Virus record (IMG/VR): IMGVR_UViG_3300037499_000265
Span: 63,506 to 127,505 of that record
DNA length: 64,000 bases
Direction: 5' to 3' (one strand)
From: a virus
In this document: positions 19,531-52,761 of the stretch, one piece after another
Layout of the letters: every line of letters begins with the position of its first letter
Position numbering within the stretch: position 1 is the first letter of the stretch
Notes under the pieces: model-generated
What the model was told of the DNA's origin: nothing
The model's database searches: none
The model's input: only the letters and a program-made list of their open reading frames with translations
Position numbers and translations under genes: made by a program

Positions 19531-19559
19531 TAGACACTTGGATGAGAGTCTGATACTGT
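19531..19559 (+). promoter_or_regulatory. Sigma70-type promoter for the glycan cassette (TAGACA-N17-TACTGT)
   Basis: Matches the window-wide promoter family. It is followed by a leader stem TCCACCTCGAT/ATCGAGGTGGA (19568-19619). Confidence 0.75.
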
Positions 19560-34613: not shown

Positions 34614-34802
34614 AGCGAAACCTAACGTCAACGAGGGTTGAGCTTGCAAGCAAGGGTAACGGACGATGACGGCGATGACGAGCCGTACAGGGCAGTAACG
34701 GACAAAACGGTAGTTATTACAGAACACGTACGACGCGCAGAATTGACGAGATCGTCAGTGATTTCGCTGTCGCACGACGCGTGGAATCGTCAGAATCGTT
34801 GA

Positions 34803-34870
34803 CGATCTTGCCGTCACACGATCGGGCAGAATTGGCAGAATCGTTTTCGATCTTGCCGTCACACGATCGG
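34803..34870. repeat. Two exact 23-bp direct repeats CGATCTTGCCGTCACACGATCGG in the divergent non-coding region
   Basis: Copies at 34803-34825 and 34848-34870, with a degenerate third copy upstream. Confidence 0.85.
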
Positions 34871-35045
34871 AGACCGGAACCCCCTCCCCGCATGGCCGCG
34901 GGCCGGCCAAGATCATTTCTACCGGTACCCGGGGGGGTATCCGGATAGAGCTGCCGGGCGAGGCTGCCGCACTCGATCAATGAGCTCGTACACTCATGCG
35001 ATTATAACGATCAGATAACGATGACTGATGATCATGACCAAACCA

Positions 35046-35073
35046 TTGACATGGTCACTAAATGCGATACGCT
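35046..35073 (+). promoter_or_regulatory. Early promoter TTGACA-N16-TACGCT
   Basis: First promoter of the rightward region, followed by an ANGTR hairpin and an RBS. Confidence 0.65.
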
Positions 35074-35115
35074 CAAAGAGCGCTCGGACGTACCGAGCAA
35101 GGAAGGATCACTGAG

Positions 35116-35325
35116 ATGCCACGCACCTACTCGCACACGTTGCGCACACTCACCCTGGCCAGTGCCGTAGTGCTCGCCCTCTTGCTCACCGCGTGCCTAG
35201 TCGGACACGCGGGCAAGCCGAGTGCTGAGCCGAGTGACCAGACCGTGCCCTACTGCCCTACTGAGGACTCCTGCCGTCCGGTGTGGGCGCATGGTGAGTG
35301 GACCATCGTAGAGACATCAGAGTGA
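35116..35325 (+). CDS. Small predicted lipoprotein
   Basis: Signal peptide ending in the lipobox LLLTAC. Confidence 0.6.
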   Translation: MPRTYSHTLRTLTLASAVVLALLLTACLVGHAGKPSAEPSDQTVPYCPTEDSCRPVWAHGEWTIVETSE

Positions 35326-35331
35326 GGCACG

Positions 35332-35396
35332 GCCTAGGACGGTACAGCCGTACGCGCGTCATAGCGCACCTAGGCACTCGGTCGGAGGTACCGACC
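35332..35396 (+). repeat. Intergenic three-stem element, copy 1, plus downstream pentaloop hairpin
   Basis: GCCTAGG...GTACGCGCGTCATAGCGCACCTAGGCAC. Confidence 0.8.
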
Positions 35397-35419
35397 TAGA
35401 CAGGGAAGGATCTACCGTC

Positions 35420-35920
35420 ATGACTGACACGACACCCATCGTAGGCACCCTAGACCTCGCCCCTGGCGACGTCGTACAACGCGTAGGTAGCATGTCACTA
35501 CTCCGCGTGACAGAGATACGTGAGCCATCGCACGCACTCGCACACGGGCTGGTCGTGGTCGGTCACCTGTACAGGTCTGGACTCATGTACTGGTCACCCC
35601 GCGAGCACATCGTGCACGACTGGACCGTATCCGAGCAATGGTACGTCTGGCAGGCAGAGGATGTGCCCGTGGCCAACGTCCTGGACAACGGCGAGGGATG
35701 GTCCGTCGTGAGCACAGAGGACGGCGTGATCACGGTCAATCAACACATGATCGAGAGTGACTACTCTCGATTCTGGCGAGTCTGGCCGCTGAGCTATCAA
35801 CTCAGCGATGCCCTCGCACGCCGCTACCTGCCCGGTGCACGGCTGGTCAGCTCTACCGGCTACGGCGTGACCAGTGCTACCCGTGACCGCCGCGTCTACC
35901 GCGTGCCAAGCGAGGTCTGA
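35420..35920 (+). CDS. Hypothetical early protein
   Basis: GGAAGGA RBS; 166-aa ORF. Confidence 0.65.
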   Translation: MTDTTPIVGTLDLAPGDVVQRVGSMSLLRVTEIREPSHALAHGLVVVGHLYRSGLMYWSPREHIVHDWTVSEQWYVWQAEDVPVANVLDNGEGWSVVSTEDGVITVNQHMIESDYSRFWRVWPLSYQLSDALARRYLPGARLVSSTGYGVTSATRDRRVYRVPSEV

Positions 35921-35921
35921 C

Positions 35922-36011
35922 ATGTACCGTCAAGCCGTCGCGCTCATGATCGGCATGATCCTAGGATCAGCCATCCTGATTACCGCCGTATGGCTCACGT
36001 GGCCACGCTAG
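35922..36011 (+). CDS. 29-aa single-TM peptide (missing from the track)
   Basis: MYRQAVALMIGMILGSAILITAVWLTWPR. Confidence 0.5.
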   Translation: MYRQAVALMIGMILGSAILITAVWLTWPR

Positions 36012-36023
36012 ATATCCAGTCAT

Positions 36024-36064
36024 CGCTACGGTACGGGTGACGCTATCGACCCCGTACCGTAGCG
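36024..36064. terminator. 14-bp hairpin with no U-tract (terminator or processing site)
   Basis: CGCTACGGTACGGG / CCCGTACCGTAGCG. Confidence 0.5.
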
Positions 36065-36122
36065 GTTATCGGGTTATCTAGTTCGGATGTACCGAACTAC
36101 CCGGATAGGAAAGGATCACATC

Positions 36123-36482
36123 ATGGCCCTATCGTGGCATCAGGCCCGAGCGGCAGGCTTACACGCATTGCCGTACGATATCGTCGGCTACCAGTTCCAA
36201 GCCGACACATACTGCCCGGGATGCATCGTTGGGCAACTCCCTACCGGCCCGGATGAGGCATACGACGGTTGGACACTGGCAACCGGTGTCACCATGACGC
36301 CAGAAGACAACTTGACCGAACTCGCGGCCGCATTCAACATCGATCGTGAGGACGAAAGTACTTTCGACCCGGGAGACTTCCCGAAAGTTGTCTTTCGCGA
36401 CTCGGCAGAGGACTACCCCTACGGGCACGACGGCGATGCCGAGACATGCGGCGCATGCGGCGGTACGTTGATTGACCCCTAG
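36123..36482 (+). CDS. Zn-binding hypothetical protein
   Basis: YCPGC...IDREDESTFDPGDFPKVVF...CGACG; RBS AAAGGATCACATC. Confidence 0.7.
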   Translation: MALSWHQARAAGLHALPYDIVGYQFQADTYCPGCIVGQLPTGPDEAYDGWTLATGVTMTPEDNLTELAAAFNIDREDESTFDPGDFPKVVFRDSAEDYPYGHDGDAETCGACGGTLIDP

Positions 36483-36538
36483 CGGCGGTACAGCCTAGGT
36501 CGTCCCGGACGTACGCGCGTCATAGCGCACCTAGGCAC
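36478..36538 (+). repeat. Intergenic three-stem element, copy 2
   Basis: CCTAGCGGCGGTACAGCCTAGGTCGTCCCGGACGTACGCGCGTCATAGCGCACCTAGGCAC. Confidence 0.85.
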
Positions 36539-36585
36539 GGGTCACTAGTCCGCAACGGGCTACCCGACAGAACGGAGTAACGACC

Positions 36586-37107
36586 ATGGTACACACCGAC
36601 ACGACACCGTACGCTCTCACGCGTACGGACGTCACAGCACTGCGCAAGGCAGACAGTGTCACTTTCCATTACAACGCCCTGGCCAACGTCCTGGACAACG
36701 GCGACCGCCGTTCGTTCGTGCGTGCGCACAAGCAAGTCACACTTGCCGAACGTGAGCGTGACCCGTTCTCGTCCGACCGTTTCCACGAGATCGATCTCGG
36801 TCCGGCAGGCGAGCAACACCGTGTGCAGAACTACGGCGATGGTGACGGCCCATGGACTGCCTTTGAGATGATTCACTCGGCACAAGTGACCGAGACATGG
36901 CGAACCGCCGCGCGTTCACTCAAGGCAGGCGAGACAATCGCCATGGTGTGGACACGCGACAACAACAGCGAATTGACTCGCGCGGCAGGCTTGCACGTGG
37001 ACTCGCTGACCATCGCGGTCGGAGTGAGAGGCAAGCCCGCGCGGCACTACCACGTCCATACCAGTATCACTCTGGACAACAGTGCCCGCATGATCCGACC
37101 TGCCTAG
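36586..37107 (+). CDS. Hypothetical early protein
   Basis: ACGGAG RBS; 173-aa ORF. Confidence 0.7.
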   Translation: MVHTDTTPYALTRTDVTALRKADSVTFHYNALANVLDNGDRRSFVRAHKQVTLAERERDPFSSDRFHEIDLGPAGEQHRVQNYGDGDGPWTAFEMIHSAQVTETWRTAARSLKAGETIAMVWTRDNNSELTRAAGLHVDSLTIAVGVRGKPARHYHVHTSITLDNSARMIRPA

Positions 37108-37184
37108 CGGCGGTACAGCCTAGGTCGTCCTGGAGCGTACGCGCGTCATAGCGCAACCTAGGCACTAGGTCGGAAGTGCCGGCC
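37103..37184 (+). repeat. Intergenic three-stem element, copy 3, plus pentaloop hairpin
   Basis: Near-identical to copy 2. Confidence 0.85.
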
Positions 37185-37203
37185 GTTACGAAAGGATCAC
37201 ATC

Positions 37204-37359
37204 ATGGGTAAGACAGAATCGCGCCGCGTGGCCACGGTCAAACGTCGCACACGTGTGACCGCGCGCCGACAGGCTACCCGCGAGCTGTGGCGTGGCAATT
37301 TCGACGCCATGGCCACTGGTGAGCGCATGGTCCGCCGCGTGCGCCGCGAGGGCGAGTGA
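37204..37359 (+). CDS. 51-aa arginine-rich peptide (missing from the track)
   Basis: RBS AAAGGATCACATC-ATG identical to that of 36123; MGKTESRRVATVKRRTRVTARRQATRELWRGNFDAMATGERMVRRVRREGE. Confidence 0.65.
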   Translation: MGKTESRRVATVKRRTRVTARRQATRELWRGNFDAMATGERMVRRVRREGE

Positions 37360-37362
37360 GCC

Positions 37363-37503
37363 ATGCTCGCATTCCTAGAAGTGCTGGCCAGTGTGGCAGG
37401 CGCCATGCTCGGTCTGGTCATTTACGGCCGCTACAGCAACGATGCTGCCCGTGAGCAGAATCGTCGTAACCTCGCCAGCATCGACAACAAGTTAGGGCGG
37501 TAG
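37363..37503 (+). CDS. 46-aa single-TM peptide (missing from the track)
   Basis: MLAFLEVLASVAGAMLGLVIYGRY... Confidence 0.55.
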   Translation: MLAFLEVLASVAGAMLGLVIYGRYSNDAAREQNRRNLASIDNKLGR

Positions 37504-37505
37504 TC

Positions 37506-37706
37506 ATGAGCAGACTCACTCTCACCATTGAAACGGACAACGCGGCATTTCAGGACGGCCAGCTAGGTCCCGAGCTCGGACGTATCCTCCACAACGTGGC
37601 AGAACGAGTCATCAAGCTGGCAGCGTACGGTCCGCATATCGACGGCCGACCCGTCGATATCAACGGCAATACGGTCGGGTCGTTCCGGCACGAGGTCACC
37701 GAGTGA
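37506..37706 (+). CDS. Small conserved-looking phage protein
   Basis: LTIETDNAAF...ELGRIL...DINGNTVG. Confidence 0.7.
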   Translation: MSRLTLTIETDNAAFQDGQLGPELGRILHNVAERVIKLAAYGPHIDGRPVDINGNTVGSFRHEVTE

Positions 37707-37933
37707 CGAACCTAGCGGCCGCCATGCCTCACGGTATGGCGGCCGTGCCGCGTCCTAGGTGCGGTCGGCGCAGCTCGGTAGCGCCAGTAGCGGCGGTAGC
37801 GACCTACGATGACACGGCATGCCTCGACTGCCAATGGCTTAACGCGCGACTGATCGAGCGTCCTAGGTGGGACACGGGAGAGTACGCGGCAACGTTGATT
37901 CGCCACATTCTCGCCCGGCACAGCCGGCGATAA
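37703..37933 (+). CDS. Hypothetical protein
   Basis: GTGA-coupled; contains CLDC. Confidence 0.45.
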   Translation: MTNLAAAMPHGMAAVPRPRCGRRSSVAPVAAVATYDDTACLDCQWLNARLIERPRWDTGEYAATLIRHILARHSRR

Positions 37934-37953
37934 GGCGATATCAATTCACGGAC

Positions 37954-38040
37954 TCCGTCGTTCCACGGCACCAGTTCGGGAAATTGCCGGCCTTGCAGAT
38001 TCCGTCATTCCACGGCACCAGTTCGGGAAATTGCCGGCCT
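37954..38040. repeat. Two 40-bp direct repeats (period 47, one mismatch)
   Basis: TCCGTC(G/A)TTCCACGGCACCAGTTCGGGAAATTGCCGGCCT at 37954-37993 and 38001-38040. Confidence 0.9.
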
Positions 38041-38170
38041 CCCCTGTCGGTCGAAACGGCAGCATTACGGAAAATGACCCTTTTTGGACGTTCGGCGCAT
38101 CGCGCGCGATTCGGACAAGTCGTACAACGCGCGCTTGATCTTAAGGCCGGTGGAAAACGGTGGCAATCGA

Positions 38171-38349
38171 CAATATTATGTCAACCTACGGCGCTCTGAC
38201 CAGCACCGATGCCAAGATCCAACTAGTTATGTCAACCTACGGCGCTCTGACCAGCACCGATGCCAAGATCCAACTAATTATGTCAACCCGCACCGCTCTG
38301 ACCTACATCGATACCGACCGATTTCAAGATCAAACTAATTATGTCAACC
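38171..38349. repeat. Iteron-like array: four copies of (AACTA[A/G])TTATGTCAACC with periods 51, 51 and 61
   Basis: TTATG starts at 38176, 38227, 38278 and 38339; the first two 51-bp units are nearly identical. Confidence 0.9.
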
Positions 38350-38420
38350 TGCAGCGGCATCCAGGTCACCGCTAGACATATCTACACATATGACCATCAA
38401 TGCCCGGTCTAAACTCCCTC

Positions 38421-38449
38421 TTGACACTCCCGCCGTCTCTTGCTACTGT
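38421..38449 (+). promoter_or_regulatory. Promoter TTGACA-N17-TACTGT (extended -10)
   Basis: Family consensus, followed by an ANGTR hairpin and an AGGAGG RBS. Confidence 0.85.
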
Positions 38450-38495
38450 AGTCAGTGAGTCGGACGTACCGACGACCTTTTTAGGAGGTAGCGCC

Positions 38496-38657
38496 ATGGC
38501 CCAAATTCACGTTTGCATCGACTGTGGAGAGTCGGTGGACCATCTGGAGGTCTTCCCCGGACCCCGGTGTCTCGACTGCTGGCGACCGATCGGCGAAAGG
38601 CAGGCGGCCACCATGACCGCCATCGACCTGGCACGAATGTGGGGATCGACCTCGTGA
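38496..38657 (+). CDS. Small Zn-finger-like protein
   Basis: CIDC...CLDC; AGGAGG RBS. Confidence 0.65.
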   Translation: MAQIHVCIDCGESVDHLEVFPGPRCLDCWRPIGERQAATMTAIDLARMWGSTS

Positions 38658-39055
38658 GCGACTACCAGGGCGAGCACCAGCCGGACGAGACCGGTGCACC
38701 GCTACACGACGTAGAATCGGTGATGCCGGACTACTACGCCCACCCCGAGTACTACCGCACCGGTGACGACGAGTGCGACGGCCCGAGCGAGCGAGCGATT
38801 CTCCGGAGTCGTGGCAATCCCGACGCCATGGTCTGGATACGGCGCGCGGTACCGCCCAAGGTCTACGACCTCCCCGGACCGAGCATCCGCCCGGGCGACT
38901 GGGTGACGACCAGCAGGCCGTACGCGCGCCGGCACGCCATGCACGCCACCGACCCCCGCCAGGACTGGCCGATCTCATCCAAGCGCGTGCCGGCCCGAGA
39001 TCTGCGCACGGACGGCAACTCGATCAACGAATGGGGATGGTTCCCCAATGCCTGA
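38654..39055 (+). CDS. ADP-ribosyltransferase-like (R-S-E) protein
   Basis: WIRRAVP...IRPGDWVTTSRPYARRHA...VPARDLRTDGNSINEWGW; GTG start. Confidence 0.6.
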   Translation: MSDYQGEHQPDETGAPLHDVESVMPDYYAHPEYYRTGDDECDGPSERAILRSRGNPDAMVWIRRAVPPKVYDLPGPSIRPGDWVTTSRPYARRHAMHATDPRQDWPISSKRVPARDLRTDGNSINEWGWFPNA

Positions 39056-39260
39056 CCCGTACGGCATCCCCGGACTGGAACGGTGCGAAGACTGTCGTAA
39101 GGTCTGCATCTGTCCTGGACCGGAGTGCCAGTGCATGATCATCGATGCGGCCGCTGCCGTGTTGCTATGCCACTCATGCACCGACGTTCGCGACCATGGG
39201 TTGACGCCCTGGTCACAACTTGATACTGTCTTACCTACCAGGTCGGACGTGCCGGCCTAG
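39048..39260 (+). CDS. Cys-rich small protein
   Basis: CEDC..VCIC...CQC...CHSC; its 3' end overlaps the next promoter. Confidence 0.45.
   Translation: MPDPYGIPGLERCEDCRKVCICPGPECQCMIIDAAAAVLLCHSCTDVRDHGLTPWSQLDTVLPTRSDVPA
39201..39229 (+). promoter_or_regulatory. Promoter TTGACG-N17-TACTGT
   Basis: Family consensus; its leader is shared with 41114-41148. Confidence 0.8.
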
Positions 39261-39276
39261 ATCGGAGAAACTCCAC

Positions 39277-39927
39277 ATGTCCCTACCGTTCACCATCACC
39301 CCGGGCCGCCAGTCGCCAACTGGCCGCGCTCACTGGCTCGACATCGCCTTTCACGACGGCCGGAAGGTCACCGGCAACGCCCGAATGGCATCTCACGTCA
39401 ACACCGACACTCACCCGGGCAACCACGACGAACCGCCGAGACACGTTTTCGTGCTCGACCTCTCGCCCACCCTGGTCGACTCAAACGGCAACACGGTCTA
39501 CCGCACCGCCGACCCTGACGCCGATGAGATCCAGGCCATGCACGCGGTCATCGCCCACCCGGTACGCGTCAACGGTGGCGCCTACCGCGGCACTCTCTAC
39601 ATCGAACGCGGCTACGACTCAGCCGCCGGCCGCCACATCGAGCCCGGCTCACACTGGTACCCCGGCGCCTGGACGTGGCGCGTGGCATACTCGTCCATCG
39701 AGCGCCTGGACGGCCCCAAGGTGACCGATGCCGCACGCTCGACCCTGCACGACCTGGCTCACCAGCTCGCCGAGACTCTCGGCACTCCCGAGCGCCTGCA
39801 CGATGACCGTGTGAAAGACGCTCAGTACAAGCACACCGAGGCCGTAGAGGCCGAGCGCAAGGCTCAACAACGCGCAAGCGAGACCTGGCAGCTCCTCTCC
39901 GCGCTGACGAATCCCCACAAGTCCTGA
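39277..39927 (+). CDS. Hypothetical protein with a C-terminal coiled coil
   Basis: Start re-called at ATG 39277 after a CGGAG RBS. Confidence 0.7.
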   Translation: MSLPFTITPGRQSPTGRAHWLDIAFHDGRKVTGNARMASHVNTDTHPGNHDEPPRHVFVLDLSPTLVDSNGNTVYRTADPDADEIQAMHAVIAHPVRVNGGAYRGTLYIERGYDSAAGRHIEPGSHWYPGAWTWRVAYSSIERLDGPKVTDAARSTLHDLAHQLAETLGTPERLHDDRVKDAQYKHTEAVEAERKAQQRASETWQLLSALTNPHKS

Positions 39928-39930
39928 CCC

Positions 39931-39960
39931 TGTCGCCGTGTCCGTCGTGACACGGCGACA
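39931..39960. terminator. Perfect 12-bp hairpin directly 5' of the tRNA-like RNA
   Basis: TGTCGCCGTGTC-CGTCGT-GACACGGCGACA; no U-tract. Confidence 0.5.
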
Positions 39961-39962
39961 AA

Positions 39963-40036
39963 GGCCCCGTATCTCAAATGGCAAGAGAGACCCGAGAACA
40001 GGGGTCTATATGCCGGTTCGAGTCCGGTCGGGGTCA
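39963..40036 (+). ncRNA. tRNA-like RNA with a non-canonical anticodon loop
   Basis: Acceptor GGCCCCG/CGGGGTC, D-arm TCTC/GAGA with GG, T-arm GCCGG-TTCGAGT-CCGGT. The anticodon arm GACCC-GAGAACAG-GGGTC lacks the Y32-U33 pattern. Confidence 0.75.
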
Positions 40037-40077
40037 CTGGAGAGCCGGACGTACCGGCTCGAAGGAGGGTAACCATC

Positions 40078-40179
40078 ATGGCCCACCAGCTCATCGCAAC
40101 CGCTCTACTGGCCATCGGCGGGGCGACCCCCGTCGTCATCGTGGCCAGAATGCTCCACGACCTGATCAGGAGGTACTGA
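40078..40179 (+). CDS. 33-aa TM peptide (missing from the track)
   Basis: AAGGAGG RBS; MAHQLIATALLAIGGATPVVIVARMLHDLIRRY. Confidence 0.55.
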   Translation: MAHQLIATALLAIGGATPVVIVARMLHDLIRRY

Positions 40180-40182
40180 ACC

Positions 40183-40887
40183 ATGACTAAGACGATCACA
40201 CTGCCCGAACTGAACGCCGATGTACTCACCTGGTCCGACGACTACGGCCACGCCCGCGTCCATGTGGCACACGGTGAGTACGTCTATCGGGTGACAGTCC
40301 AGCGCGACACCTACCCGGAACCGCCCGATGGCGACTACCTGGCACCAATGGTCTACCTGTCGGATGAGTACCGGCAGTCGTACGAGCACGCCGACGACGT
40401 CTATCGGGCATGGGAGTATTTCCGGCATGTGCATCGACACGCTGGCCGTCTTTGCCTTTTCGATCCTTACGACCTGTTGGCCCGGTACCTCCGGATCTAC
40501 TACGGCACGACCGTGGTCGAGTTCGCATCGCATCTCGGCTACAGCGGTCCGGCCGGCGTGTTCTTCGACACCGCCGAATGGCGAGAGCTCACCGGCTGGC
40601 ATCGAGACCCGGGAGAGATCCCCGGCGCCGGTGGCAACCCCGCGGCCGAATCCCGGTCGGTCTGGCATTCCTACGCCGATGGCGACGTCTACGGCGTGAT
40701 CGTTGAACGCCGAACGACCGGCATCACGACATGGGCCGATGGCCGAGTCGAGAGCGTCACCGAGTGGAACGAGCCGGACGACGATATCTGGTCGATATGG
40801 GGATACTACGGCGACGACGAGATCCCCTACATGCTCGCCGAGCACGCCACCGCGTGGATCGAGAACGACAAGCCGAAGGGACTCTGA
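40183..40887 (+). CDS. Hypothetical protein
   Basis: AGGAGG RBS; WxxYADGDVYGVIVE...WSIWGYYG motif. Confidence 0.75.
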   Translation: MTKTITLPELNADVLTWSDDYGHARVHVAHGEYVYRVTVQRDTYPEPPDGDYLAPMVYLSDEYRQSYEHADDVYRAWEYFRHVHRHAGRLCLFDPYDLLARYLRIYYGTTVVEFASHLGYSGPAGVFFDTAEWRELTGWHRDPGEIPGAGGNPAAESRSVWHSYADGDVYGVIVERRTTGITTWADGRVESVTEWNEPDDDIWSIWGYYGDDEIPYMLAEHATAWIENDKPKGL

Positions 40888-40891
40888 GTCC

Positions 40892-41083
40892 ATGGACGAG
40901 TACACCGAAACCCTGTTGACCACCGTCCAGGCCCGACGTTCCGACGACTCTGTCAAGACAGACCTAGAACTGATCTGCACGCAGTGCCCGGACGACGCCA
41001 GACCATTGTGTGACATCGAGCACGACGACACCCTCTCTGTACTGGTGGCCGTCGCACTGCACCATGCCCGAACCGAGCACTAG
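40892..41083 (+). CDS. Small Zn-binding hypothetical protein
   Basis: LICTQC...LCDIEHDDTLSVL...HH. Confidence 0.6.
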   Translation: MDEYTETLLTTVQARRSDDSVKTDLELICTQCPDDARPLCDIEHDDTLSVLVAVALHHARTEH

Positions 41084-41109
41084 ACATCCCGGTACAAACC
41101 TGCTACTGT
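41081..41109 (+). promoter_or_regulatory. Promoter TAGACA-N17-TACTGT
   Basis: Family consensus. Confidence 0.8.
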
Positions 41110-41156
41110 TACGCCTACCAGGTCGGACGTGCCGGCCTAGAACGGAGACACCGACT

Positions 41157-41828
41157 ATGTTCACAGTCACCGAGACCATTCACCACGGGCAGTATCGCAA
41201 CGTCCAGTCCGCCAGCGCTGACACTCTCACCGAAGCGGTCGACAAGGTCGTAGCGACGAGCCCGTACAACGTCGCCATGTCCCGACCGAAGATCAATGCC
41301 CTGACCGCGGCACTCGCCGAGCACGGCAGTGCCGATCACGGTTGGGCACGATACGTCCTCACCGCCGACTTGCGAAACGAACAGTCGAACGACCTCCACC
41401 CCACCGGCGAGTGGTTTCACCTGCCGTCCATGACTCCGCACTCCCCAATCGATGAGGACGCCGGAGATATCGGCGGTGACGTCCAGGCCGGACCCGCCTA
41501 CGCCATCTCGTGGCGTCGCCGTACCGACGACGACTGGGAGACGCTGACCCTGTACCACTTCGCCGCCGATGACGATGACGCCACGGTGCCGAACGCGAGG
41601 CAGGGCGTCCGGGTCGAGACCATGATCGAACTCGTCCGGCACACGGACGAGAACGACCCCGGCACGACCGAACTCGACTCTGACTGCCGGTACGAGTCCG
41701 GCATCACCGCCGACCCGCCCGGCGAACTCGACCATGACGCCGCACTCGCCAAGGCGAACGAGATGGCCATCCGGTACACCGTCGACAACCTCACCACCGA
41801 CCCTCAGACCCTCTGGTGGCCGTTGTGA
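41157..41828 (+). CDS. Hypothetical acidic protein
   Basis: Start re-called at ATG 41157. Confidence 0.65.
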   Translation: MFTVTETIHHGQYRNVQSASADTLTEAVDKVVATSPYNVAMSRPKINALTAALAEHGSADHGWARYVLTADLRNEQSNDLHPTGEWFHLPSMTPHSPIDEDAGDIGGDVQAGPAYAISWRRRTDDDWETLTLYHFAADDDDATVPNARQGVRVETMIELVRHTDENDPGTTELDSDCRYESGITADPPGELDHDAALAKANEMAIRYTVDNLTTDPQTLWWPL

Positions 41829-49936: not shown

Positions 49937-50118
49937 CTACCGTGCCGTACCCAGATGAGATCAGCCGCGCCGAGGCTGAGTGGATACTGGACGAGGGAGC
50001 GCGTCGTTGGCTCGGGATGTCCGGCGAGGAGTTTGCTCGCCGGCACGATCGCGGAGATCTGCCTAGGTCAGCAATGGTCGAACACCTGAGCGATCTTCTC
50101 GACCTTTCTAGGCAGTAG
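49933..50118 (+). CDS. Small helical hypothetical protein
   Basis: Coupled; ARRWLGMSGEEFARRHDRG. Confidence 0.55.
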   Translation: MTTVPYPDEISRAEAEWILDEGARRWLGMSGEEFARRHDRGDLPRSAMVEHLSDLLDLSRQ

Positions 50119-50649: not shown

Positions 50650-52761
50650 GTGGAACAAATCAGCAAGAAGCTCATGAACTGGGCGTCCATCCTGGAGCCG
50701 AACACCCGCGAGCAGGCCGAGCGGACCGCCAGCATGCCGTTCATCCACCCGCACCTGGCGCTCATGCCGGATGCTCATCTCGGCAAGGGCGCCACAGTCG
50801 GCTCAGTGATCCCGACGCTCGGCGCGATCATTCCCGCCGCAGTCGGCGTGGACATCGGCTGCGTCGATGCCGACACCGAGTTCCTGTCTCCAACCGGATG
50901 GAAGCGCATAGCCGACTACGCCGGTGAGCCGGTCATGGGATACGACCCTGCCTCCGGCCTGGGCGAGTTCGTTCAGCCGTTGCAGTTCGTCAAGCGGCCG
51001 TCCTCGGGGTTCTGGCACTTCAAGACGAAGTACGGGATCGACCAGAAACTCAGTCCTGATCACCGTGTGCTCGGATACAAGATCGTGGGCCGTGATCGCC
51101 GTCGAGAGCAGGTCGTGGTCAGTGCTGCCGAGTTGGCCAAGAAGCACGCCTGGCTAAAGCTCGGAGCCAAGTTCGAGTTCATCACGACGTTCACTCCTCT
51201 CCGAAGTGTCAGCCTGCCACTGACCGATCCTGAGATCCGCGTGATGGTCATGGTGATGGCGGATGGAGCCTTCAACTCACACCGTGAGCATTCCACGCGC
51301 GTCACCCTGCGTTTCAAGAAGGAGCGGAAGATCGCTCGCTCGGTTGAACTTCTGGATGCGGCTGCCATCGAGTACTCCAAGCGCCAGACGTCGGACGGTG
51401 CGACCGCAATCTCATTCGACGCGCCGATGCGGACCAAGACCTACCAGGATTTCTGGAACGCCAGCCTGGACCAGATCACAGTGATCGCTGATGAAGTGCT
51501 GCACTGGGATGGTCATCTGCCTGACCGTGTGTTCTTCACGCGTGACGAGCGGTCTGCCGACTTCATCCAGTACGTCTTCACGGCGACCGGTCGACGCGCT
51601 GTGAAGCGCGCAGACGTCCATCCGGACGGGAAGACTGACTACCGGGTATTCGCTCATGAACGCATCGCAGTCGGCCTAGCTGGTGCGCCCAAGTCGCCTG
51701 TCCAGTGGGTCGAGTCCACGGACGGACACGAGTACTGTTTCACGATGCCAAGCGGCTTCTGGGTCATGCGTCGCGGCGGCAACGTGGTCATGACAGGGAA
51801 CTGCGGCATGATCGCTGTACGGACGCAGTACGTCCTAGGCGACCTCGACGGGCTGGACCGATCGGCGCTGCGGGAGTCGATCGAGCAGGCCATCCCGCTC
51901 TCGGCCGGCAACTACAACCAACACGTGACGAACAGCGCCGAACCTCGAGTGGTCGCGTTGGCGGACGACGCGAGGAAGGCCAGGTTCGATCCGACGAGCT
52001 ACGCGGGCAACTGGGACCTCCAACTCGGCACGCTCGGCTCCGGCAACCACTTCATCGAGGTCACCGTCGACGAGAGTGATCAGGTGTGGCTGTTCCTGCA
52101 CTCCGGATCGCGAGGCATCGGCAACAAGATCGCGCAGCGGCACATCAAGATCGCCAAGAGCCTGTGCGAGAAGTGGTGGATCCCCCTGCCCGATCCCGAT
52201 CTGGCCTACCTGGTCGAGGGCACCGACGAGTTCTGGACCTACATCCGAGAACTCCGGTGGGCGCAGAAGTTCGCCCTGTACAACCGCGAGGAGATGATGG
52301 ACCGGGTCGTGCAGTGCTTCGAGGAGTGGCTCGGCAACGACGTCGACGAGCGCGAGCGGATCAACTGCCACCACAACTTCACTCAGAAGGAACGCCACTG
52401 GGGCAAGGATGTGTGGGTGTCTCGGAAGGGTGCGATCTCGGCCAAGACCGGTGAGCTGGGCCTGATCCCAGGCTCGATGGGCACCGCGTCTTATGTGGTC
52501 GAAGGGCTCGGCAACCGGCTGTCGCTCGACTCGAGTCCACACGGCGCCGGCCGGAACTACTCCCGCTCGAAGGCGCGCAAGGCGTTCACTCACGATCAGC
52601 TCCGCGAGCGCATGGCAGGGATCGAGTGGCGGGACTCCGAAGCGTTCCTGGACGAGATCCCGGACGCCTACAAGCCGGTGGAACAGGTGATGGCCGACGC
52701 GATCGACCTCGTCAACACCAAGCACGTCTTGCACCAGATCATTAACGTAAAAGGGGAGTAG
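50650..52761 (+). CDS. rtcB: RtcB RNA ligase interrupted by an intein
   Basis: MPDAHLGKGATVG, AVGVDIG|CGM, LGTLGSGNHFIE, LHSGSRG, HHN, RKGA, IPGSMG, SPHGAGR, DEIPDAYK. Confidence 0.95.
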   Translation: MEQISKKLMNWASILEPNTREQAERTASMPFIHPHLALMPDAHLGKGATVGSVIPTLGAIIPAAVGVDIGCVDADTEFLSPTGWKRIADYAGEPVMGYDPASGLGEFVQPLQFVKRPSSGFWHFKTKYGIDQKLSPDHRVLGYKIVGRDRRREQVVVSAAELAKKHAWLKLGAKFEFITTFTPLRSVSLPLTDPEIRVMVMVMADGAFNSHREHSTRVTLRFKKERKIARSVELLDAAAIEYSKRQTSDGATAISFDAPMRTKTYQDFWNASLDQITVIADEVLHWDGHLPDRVFFTRDERSADFIQYVFTATGRRAVKRADVHPDGKTDYRVFAHERIAVGLAGAPKSPVQWVESTDGHEYCFTMPSGFWVMRRGGNVVMTGNCGMIAVRTQYVLGDLDGLDRSALRESIEQAIPLSAGNYNQHVTNSAEPRVVALADDARKARFDPTSYAGNWDLQLGTLGSGNHFIEVTVDESDQVWLFLHSGSRGIGNKIAQRHIKIAKSLCEKWWIPLPDPDLAYLVEGTDEFWTYIRELRWAQKFALYNREEMMDRVVQCFEEWLGNDVDERERINCHHNFTQKERHWGKDVWVSRKGAISAKTGELGLIPGSMGTASYVVEGLGNRLSLDSSPHGAGRNYSRSKARKAFTHDQLRERMAGIEWRDSEAFLDEIPDAYKPVEQVMADAIDLVNTKHVLHQIINVKGE
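50860..51801 (+). mobile_element. 314-aa intein with a LAGLIDADG-type homing endonuclease
   Basis: Starts CVDADTEFLSPTGW and ends YCFTMPSGFWVMRRGGNVVMTGN before Cys+1. Internal VMVMADGAF and VLHWDGH blocks. Confidence 0.92.

Follow-up and report, generated by a model that had tools for sequence, protein, structure and literature searches.

What is the function of a short sequence that is repeated three times, each time directly behind a stop codon, among the tiny early genes of an uncultured virus? The sequence, termed element A here, lies in a 64,000-nucleotide stretch (the window; bases 63506-127505) of the 127,505-base IMG/VR record IMGVR_UViG_3300037499_000265. Little is understood of the way in which large lytic actinophages divide expression among their dozens of tiny early genes, and the predicted operon holding element A provides a compact test case. 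A first-pass annotation, made from the letters alone, had proposed an undescribed cis-regulatory RNA. We arrive at a tentative reading of element A as RNA-level punctuation, which would create or protect mRNA ends within the early operon.

Element A is a repeated, non-coding element of one predicted operon

A composite search pattern (5′ arm, 8-20 nt, invariant core) occurred three times, always on the + strand, where 0.00 occurrences were expected from 100 dinucleotide shuffles. Neither this pattern nor a covariance model revealed a further copy in the 127,505-base genome. Each copy begins 6-10 nt past a stop codon (TGA 35323, TAG 36480 and TAG 37105), in agreement with the first-pass annotation, which had described three copies after stop codons and correctly placed the third within 37103-37165 (Table 1). 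The full element spans approximately 46 nt and contains the arms GCCTAGG and CCTAGGC. The three copies agree throughout a block of 29 nt, save for one extra A in copy 3; the block comprises the 3′ end of a variable segment, a GCGC-hexaloop-GCGC hairpin, the 3′ arm and two more bases. The variable segment itself measures 13-14 nt and differs in copy 1 from copies 2 and 3.

Reading through the stop codons yields peptides that differ between copies 2 and 3 owing to an indel; thus, element A is non-coding and its conservation lies at the nucleotide level. Recent duplication of the flanking genes was considered as the cause of the copies and rejected, as the flanking proteins are unrelated apart from one short patch. 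This patch comprises 44 nt with 82% DNA identity (35667-35710 and 36677-36720), inside the otherwise unrelated genes 35420-35920 and 36586-37107, and falls in a variable, insertion-prone segment of the homologue alignment. In summary, element A is a real, non-coding and strand-specific element with three members, so far in one uncultured phage genome. Elsewhere in the operon, a CCTAGG-containing 12-mer occurs at 37751-37762 and 37859-37870, 108 bp apart within the open reading frame (ORF) 37703-37933, and has 10 nt in common with the reverse complement of the element A 3′ arm region.

The phage possesses a genome-wide promoter consensus of host type, composed of a TTGACA-like box, 14 nt and a TGN + TAC-type -10. 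Strict matches number 15 across the genome as against 1.2 in shuffles, and include window positions 19531, 25904, 38421, 39201, 41081, 50124 and 62236. From the promoter at 35046 the predicted unit extends to 37933 (approximately 2.9 kb) and encompasses nine tiny ORFs without assigned function, as well as a long hairpin. No match to the consensus was found between 35100 and 38400, and the three copies are therefore placed within one predicted transcription unit.

The earlier statement that element A lacks -35/-10 boxes, a U-tract and known ribozyme cores was borne out in each part. No TANNNT hexamer, as expected of a sigma-A/sigma-70 promoter, is present on either strand of the conserved part, and neither a promoter scan nor a scan with the phage's own consensus produced a match at the copies. 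The 3′ flanks begin A-C-U-C, A-C-G-G and A-C-U-A, with no U-tract or T run, and a terminator scan detected no intrinsic terminator at the three sites despite the hairpin. In Rfam 15, no family reached its gathering score in the window, and even at E ≤ 5 no match in 34700-41300 overlapped the elements; none of its covariance models for described RNA families, including self-cleaving ribozymes and riboswitches, matched the element. Similarly, no tRNA was called at the three sites by ARAGORN or by the Rfam tRNA model.

Other classes of repeat were also compared with element A. The arms are without the AAC/GTT core of integron attC sites, and a profile search of the genome found no Phage_integrase or Resolvase domain. 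Three copies in one operon, in a genome in which no integrase was found, do not correspond to the stoperators of L5-type phages, whose repressor was not searched for specifically. A stem-loop is present, as in the composite cassettes known as PeSLs, with no promoter inside element A. Phage-specific promoters would be expected in copies spread over the genes of one temporal class, together with a gene for a cognate polymerase or sigma factor; the three copies all reside within 2 kb.

Predicted folds agree on the closing helix and differ in the interior

All 15 pairs of a three-stem model can form in all three copies (45/45 pair cells). Thirteen of these pairs are invariant, and the variation is confined to one double compensatory change (G-C versus U-A) and one C-G versus U.G. 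Folding energies are low for each copy (z-scores of -3.0 to -3.4), and the outer stem has a probability of approximately 1 in five of six folds.

The interior is less uniform. Partition-function calculations predict copy 1 to fold as a three-way junction with a 7-bp closing stem, in which the GCGC hairpin has a probability of 0.99. At minimum energy, copy 2 is predicted to form a single long irregular hairpin involving the palindrome ACGCGCGT, and the probability of the GCGC hairpin is 0.06; in copy 3, the latter ranges from 0.02 to 0.77 by context. Copies 2 and 3 have 16-17 paired positions with internal loops. The first-pass annotation had envisaged a middle hairpin that varies in sequence while retaining its pairing. 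Such pairs can indeed form in every copy; the 5-bp hairpin of the copy 1 13-mer is unusual relative to random 13-mers (p ~0.008), whereas the 4-bp hairpin of copy 2 is unremarkable (p ~0.11) and the middle stem of copy 3 requires a bulged G. Likewise, the three-way junction proposed from the letters is formable in all copies and is the predicted dominant fold in copy 1 only. Across the models the robust features are a 7-8 bp closing helix and the tendency of the spacer to self-pair; the three-way junction may form but is not established. An RNase III site of the T7 R1.1 type is an irregular intercistronic hairpin of approximately 20 bp, and with this type element A has the intercistronic position in common.

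Three further candidates were rejected. At 50058-50114, a look-alike stem with similar arms precedes a full promoter, but its predicted fold is not significant (z = -0.31). Long-range stems enclosing whole genes were discounted: pairing between the 3′ arm of one copy and the 5′ arm of its successor is limited to those same 8 bp and extends no further. When both strands were scanned for ungapped antisense matches, G.U pairs included, no trans-acting complementary RNA emerged, nothing exceeding the approximately 1.5 runs of 15 nt expected by chance.

Element A occupies the slot upstream of a covarying 5′-untranslated-region hairpin

A second, smaller hairpin (hairpin B) recurs at window positions 35082, 35380, 36079, 37168, 38459, 39241, 40042, 41121 and 50162 and at genome position 16994 (minus strand), lying 5-25 nt upstream of around ten start codons and just ahead of ribosome-binding sites. 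Its stem measures 4-8 bp, usually 6 bp, with CGG/CCG closing and an A-N-G-U-R pentaloop. The outer stem changes between sites in a manner that keeps its pairing, one position being G-C, C-G or U-A and another U-A, U.G or C-G, and this covariation points to an RNA structure.

Six copies of hairpin B begin 7-13 nt downstream of the -10 box of a consensus promoter, which puts them at the predicted +1 to +6 of a transcript. The others follow a structured element at a distance of 2-5 nt; this is element A in two cases, and a long hairpin and a tRNA-like element in one case each. Since element A thus fills the slot just upstream of a covarying 5′-untranslated-region (5′-UTR) hairpin, a role at the RNA level is supported. 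The acceptor stem and T arm of the tRNA-like element are normal, but its anticodon loop has 8 nt; the element is preceded by an 11-bp hairpin, and was called by ARAGORN with an odd anticodon and missed by the Rfam tRNA model.

Table 1 Element A, hairpin B and associated features of the window (window coordinates)
Feature	Coordinates	Strand	Details
Element A copy 1	35332-35377	+	Outer arms 35332-35338 and 35369-35375 (span 35332-35375); invariant block 35349-35377; variable 13-mer with 5-bp hairpin
Element A copy 2	36493-36538	+	Outer arms 36493-36499 and 36530-36536 (span 36493-36536); invariant block 36510-36538
Element A copy 3	37118-37165	+	Outer arms 37118-37124 and 37157-37163 (span 37118-37163); invariant block 37136-37165, one inserted A
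Hairpin B after copy 1	35380-35396	+	6-bp stem; 4 nt past copy 1, 23 nt before ATG 35420
Hairpin B after copy 3	37168-37184	+	4 nt past copy 3, 19 nt before ATG 37204
Two-tier hairpin, not hairpin B	36538-36566	+	1 nt past copy 2, before ATG 36586
Predicted operon promoter and hairpin B	35046-35098	+	-35 35046-35051; -10 35068-35073; hairpin B 35082-35098 at predicted transcript 5′ end
Sister junction	36014-36099	+	Long hairpin 36014-36076 in the element A slot, 16-bp perfect core 36022-36037/36051-36066; hairpin B 36079-36099
tRNA-like element and hairpin B	39963-40060	+	tRNA-like 39963-40037; 4 nt later hairpin B 40042-40060; same slot as element A

Neighbouring genes and genome context

The first gene of the predicted operon (35116-35325) encodes a 69-amino-acid protein with a lipoprotein-type signal (L-L-T-A-C lipobox), and the third (35922-36011) a hydrophobic peptide of 29 amino acids. 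Directly after copy 3 and its hairpin B, 37204-37359 encodes a 51-amino-acid peptide containing 14 arginines, a candidate nucleic-acid-binding partner. Arrays of direct repeats bracket the early block at 34740-34870 (~44 bp, three copies), 37951-38040 (47 bp, two copies) and 38176-38356 (51 bp, three to four copies), and could be iterons or regulatory arrays.

The genome has a GC content of approximately 62%, and its structural genes (portal, major capsid, terminase and a tape-measure-sized ORF of 1,400 amino acids) are oriented leftward. Over approximately 70% of its length, the capsid protein has approximately 52% identity with the capsid proteins of Actinomycetia phage DSL-LC01 and Gordonia phages GMA2 and Sixama, which indicates a large actinophage-type virus; a blastn search against 50,697 phage records found no close cultured relative. 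The virus is probably lytic, because neither integrase nor resolvase domains were found. The 127-bp terminal repeat of the record is an assembly overlap that implies a circular assembly; therefore, the physical ends of the genome, and with them the end injected first, are not readable from the record. For the suggestion of the first-pass annotation that element A serves as a single-stranded DNA signal during injection, nothing was found in its favour, the terminal repeat being this same overlap.

Profile searches of the genome detected neither an RNase III nor a Sigma70_r2 domain, and one weak, sub-threshold match to Sigma70_r4_2 lies away from element A. A search for a T7-type RNA_pol gave no match in the genome, a negative that is not validated as the control found the family nowhere either; no unassigned ORF of polymerase size (~800-1100 amino acids) is left in the genome. 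A 703-amino-acid ORF of the RtcB RNA ligase type (window 50650-52761) matches its family in two separate stretches, and its N-terminal ~300 residues match unrelated families, suggesting an insertion such as an intein.

Distant phages contain analogous cassettes

Homologues of element A were sought more widely. Core patterns, whether exact or degenerate, had no match in viral contigs or species genome contigs, and blastn of the element against the 50,697 phage records was also without a match. The sole metagenome match (L009) has no partner arm, is located where a bacterial ABC-transporter-like gene ends and was dismissed as a chance match. The covariance-model search proposed by the first-pass annotation was carried out with a model (R1) that recovered its three training copies and no further copy, the next-best matches having E ≥ 0.01.

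The flanked genes offered an alternative route to relatives. Homologues of gene 36586-37107 were found at nine viral loci, with at most 34% identity in viral contigs, together with one 60%-identical homologue (P0002); the gene has no relatives in cultured phages or species genomes. The flanked genes count as ORFans, and relatives of the primase show at most 49% identity. A search for relatives possessing both promoter and hairpin B returned 14 single matches attributed to chance, and the best candidate (G001) contains one exact hairpin-B motif.

At the loci of its homologues, gene 36586-37107 is again found in arrays of small genes separated by repeated cassettes. In four of these (L011, L013, L014 and L015) the cassette consists of a promoter, then a 5′ hairpin, then a ribosome-binding site. 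A high-GC locus (L012:4560-7455) contains at least six consecutive junctions, each composed of a conserved 8-mer, a variable covarying hairpin, a conserved 10-mer, a second hairpin and a ribosome-binding site. The second hairpin has an invariant 8-nt loop on at least four different covarying stems. No sigma-70 promoter was found at these junctions, and a spacing that varies by 18-22 nt does not represent a promoter spacer. In DSL-LC01 (L010; 23500-43400), at least 16 copies of an extended -10 promoter occur between small hypothetical genes, each followed by a conserved 5′-UTR and ribosome-site segment. By comparison with element A, the cassettes of L011-L015 and DSL-LC01 are analogues and not homologues; such cassettes are a common design, of which promoter-type and structure-only versions both exist.

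RNA punctuation as a tentative reading of element A

The observations to be explained are the placement, invariance and foldability of the copies and the absence of promoter and terminator signatures. From these we infer a single transcript on which element A would act as RNA, being cleaved by an enzyme of the host. Element A would form the upstream half of an intercistronic cassette that continues with the small 5′-UTR hairpin and the ribosome-binding site. The host-type promoter at 35046 would transcribe the ~2.9 kb of tiny genes, and the RNA behind the three stop codons would fold to a stem-loop closed by a GCCUAGG/CCUAGGC helix of 7-8 bp. This stem-loop would cap the 3′ end of the upstream cistron and constitute a boundary for processing and decay. 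A host endonuclease would cut at or beside its base; this could be RNase III, acting within the stem, or RNase E, acting on the 5′ side of the C of the 4-nt A-C-U-N linker. The downstream message would consequently start a few nt before hairpin B, which would shield the new 5′ end, and a sequence-specific factor may additionally read the 29 invariant nt. More generally, hairpin B would mark and protect the 5′ ends of mRNAs, and the element or promoter preceding it would create those ends.

Several features agree with this scheme. The placement is constant, with element A always on the coding strand, 6-10 nt from the stop codon and 1-4 nt before the next hairpin. Transfer RNAs are excised by RNase P and 3′-end processing enzymes. 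The slot before hairpin B suits the generation of 5′ ends because a tRNA-like element fills it once. The variable segment stays self-complementary despite its change of sequence between copies, and the L012 junctions follow the same logic in a distant phage that carries a homologue of a flanked gene. Mycobacterial RNase E cuts immediately 5′ of cytidines, and mapped mycobacterial cleavage sites are most enriched between the genes of polycistrons, with differing stability on the two sides (PMC10641625). All three linkers after element A begin A-C, and such cleavage would be plausible in an actinobacterial host.

Other findings weigh against RNA punctuation. The first-pass reading was partly supported, in that the element is non-coding and strand-specific and matches no described family, and the hairpin-B context fits; the covariation, on the other hand, amounts to a single compensatory pair of no statistical weight, 168 of 500 shuffles scoring as well. 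The self-complementarity of CCTAGG and GCGC makes much of the pairing automatic, a caution that had already been raised. The interior fold is not the same across copies, and in a 146-nt context copy 3 loses the outer stem as well (probability 0.06). Copy 2 is without a following hairpin B. A plain end-protecting hairpin would not need 29 invariant nt that include predicted loops, a linker of 4 nt hemmed in by two stable hairpins suits RNase E poorly, and a stem of 7-8 bp is short for RNase III. Lastly, our searches found no homologues on which covariation could be assessed.

Alternative explanations

The invariance of the 29 nt, loops included, argues for sequence-specific recognition rather than recognition of shape alone, which keeps a DNA-level site or an unusual promoter under consideration. 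As a site in double-stranded DNA, element A would bind a sequence-specific and probably oligomeric protein, acting as an operator or elongation roadblock that shuts the early operon, with the nested palindromes as half-sites. We judge this to be fairly unlikely. The block is invariant even at loop positions while the hairpin B beside it differs between copies 1 and 3 at 3 of 17 positions; the element is rich in palindromes (CCTAGG twice, ACGCGCGT and GCGC-N6-GCGC); the predicted RNA folds disagree between copies; and a 17-bp intergenic repeat of Cluster O mycobacteriophages, presumed to bind protein, supplies a precedent (PMC4351075). Yet the extra complementary bases between the arms (G...C, and T...A in copies 2 and 3) suit a hairpin better than symmetric sites, as does a variable spacer that stays self-complementary, and the copies lie between genes and not over a promoter, three in number and in one orientation. 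No DNA-binding domain was found in the neighbouring genes, and with no integrase found a lysogenic repressor system of the L5 type is unlikely. A non-canonical promoter, used by host RNA polymerase with an unrecognised phage factor or by an alternative sigma factor of the host, would again place hairpin B at the 5′ end of a message, and is in our view unlikely. In its contiguous invariant block of ~29 bp, which stops 2 nt short of hairpin B, element A is similar to phage-specific promoters, and it sits where sister cassettes have a promoter; distant phages reiterate a promoter before nearly every small early gene (at least 16 in DSL-LC01, and likewise in L011, L013, L014 and L015). A loose reading in the manner of extracytoplasmic function (ECF) sigma factors is possible (GGAC or GGTC, 16-17 nt, CGTC), but its -35 is without the AAC core. 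Moreover, the conserved part contains neither TANNNT nor the strict host-type consensus, and a special class of promoter would be expected genome-wide and not three times within 2 kb. A cognate partner is also wanting: no Sigma70_r2 was found, the Sigma70_r4_2 match is weak, sub-threshold and elsewhere, no unassigned ORF of ~800-1100 amino acids is left, and the negative for a T7-type polymerase is the unvalidated one described above.

The uniformity of element A might instead reflect its history. Were it mainly a cassette junction, in which recombination homogenises a conserved linker and small early genes are exchanged, it could otherwise be a generic intergenic hairpin. The copies are mosaic: copies 2 and 3 have 15 nt in common upstream, spanning the stop codon; copies 1 and 3 have the downstream hairpin B in common (86%); the junctions at 36108 and 37190 contain an identical ribosome-site segment of ~18 nt; and a 10-mer present within copy 1 is displaced to the 5′ side of the arm in the other two copies. 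The genes on either side are ORFans, those at 35420-35920 and 36586-37107 being unrelated outside their 44-nt patch of 82% identity, and precedent exists in the PeSLs of T4-type phages (PMC4122927, PMC2839356). Nevertheless, no relatives showing a swap at these sites and no recombinase were found, and gene conversion should homogenise the flanks, where the boundaries of identity are sharp. As the main explanation we consider it improbable; it would account for spread rather than function and is compatible with the other readings. Control of elongation, finally, would make element A a leaky terminator or attenuator that grades expression, or a put-type antiterminator RNA that acts in cis. Such a role would be in keeping with a stable GC-rich structure immediately behind stop codons, the terminator-like long hairpin between copies 1 and 2 and the arginine-rich 51-amino-acid peptide encoded just downstream of copy 3, and several other terminator-like hairpins of this phage are also without U-tracts. 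Element A itself has no U-tract, however, and its branched or irregular interior is unlike the long perfect hairpins of the phage. Three efficient terminators with no intervening promoter would silence six downstream genes, and an antiterminator would be expected once, right after the promoter, with its protein partner encoded before the terminators and not after them. On balance, elongation control is very unlikely.

We thus retain RNA punctuation as the reading to which we tentatively adhere. In its most specific form, element A, the A-N-G-U-R hairpin and the tRNA mimic would constitute one dedicated punctuation system, in which a factor reads the 29-nt block in RNA and directs cutting; this form is quite improbable. 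Such a factor would possibly be phage-encoded, the arginine-rich 51-amino-acid peptide beside copy 3 being a candidate partner. A system of this kind would yield individually capped, differently stable messages from a single early transcript, and would represent a programmed mRNA-processing code in an actinophage, as distinct from a simple reuse of host RNase III sites.

Beyond element A, four features occur in front of the same 5′-UTR hairpin at different sites (a promoter, a tRNA mimic, a plain hairpin and element A), and these are possibly alternative routes to a protected 5′ end. Should this be the case, element A would lend itself to use in high-GC hosts as a portable insulator or processing part, and would mark phage cassette borders; if it is a protein-binding site or a promoter instead, it would point to an unrecognised early regulator. 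The reach of either outcome is limited by a family confined so far to one uncultured genome, and the whole cassette logic around hairpin B is a more interesting object than element A alone.

Comparison with known systems

The closest functional comparison is with the RNase III sites of the phage T7 early region (R0.3, R0.5, R1, R1.1 and R1.3); similar conserved sites are present in the early mRNA of Bacillus phage SP82. The T7 sites are sequence-related intercistronic stem-loops on a polycistronic early transcript made from host promoters, and once cut they leave the upstream message with a 3′-terminal hairpin. Element A similarly repeats stem-loops between cistrons, in copies that are more alike than structure alone requires. 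The T7 sites, however, are single irregular hairpins of about two helical turns, whereas element A has a constant helix of 7-8 bp and a variable interior, and one of its copies prefers a junction. Its sequence is unrelated to those of the T7 and SP82 sites, and its cleavage is only proposed.

Punctuation by tRNAs is known from mitochondria, and tRNA-mRNA co-transcripts with RNase P sites occur in bacterial operons. Element A is likewise compact and situated between cistrons, with a 7-bp closing stem, and a tRNA-like element fills the same slot; unlike a tRNA, it has two short arms in place of three, and the 3′ strand of its closing stem follows 1-2 unpaired bases. The repetitive extragenic palindromes and bacterial interspersed mosaic elements (REP/BIME) of enterobacteria number in the hundreds, are spread by a dedicated transposase, and can stabilise upstream mRNA and bind proteins on DNA. 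In common with these, element A is an imperfect palindrome after stop codons; in contrast, its copies number three, and copies 2 and 3 are not flanked by a target-site duplication.

Among phage repeats, the PeSLs of T4-type phages combine a stem-loop with a sigma-70 early promoter and are thought to mediate gene shuffling (PMC2839356, PMC4122927). Element A resembles them in flanking small, function-unassigned genes of an early, plastic region and in its mosaic copies, which suggest recombination at the repeats, but it is without a -10/-35 box, though sister cassettes of the same phage have a promoter. The Cluster O mycobacteriophage repeat is a simple 7-3-7 palindrome of 17 bp, present in more than 30 copies with no preferred orientation (PMC4351075). 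Both it and element A are dyad-symmetric repeats in small intergenic gaps of actinophages, neither with a proven function; element A differs in being 46 nt long and asymmetric, with three copies in one orientation and one operon. Element A is thus a new sequence family within a familiar class, the repeated intercistronic elements of phage early regions.

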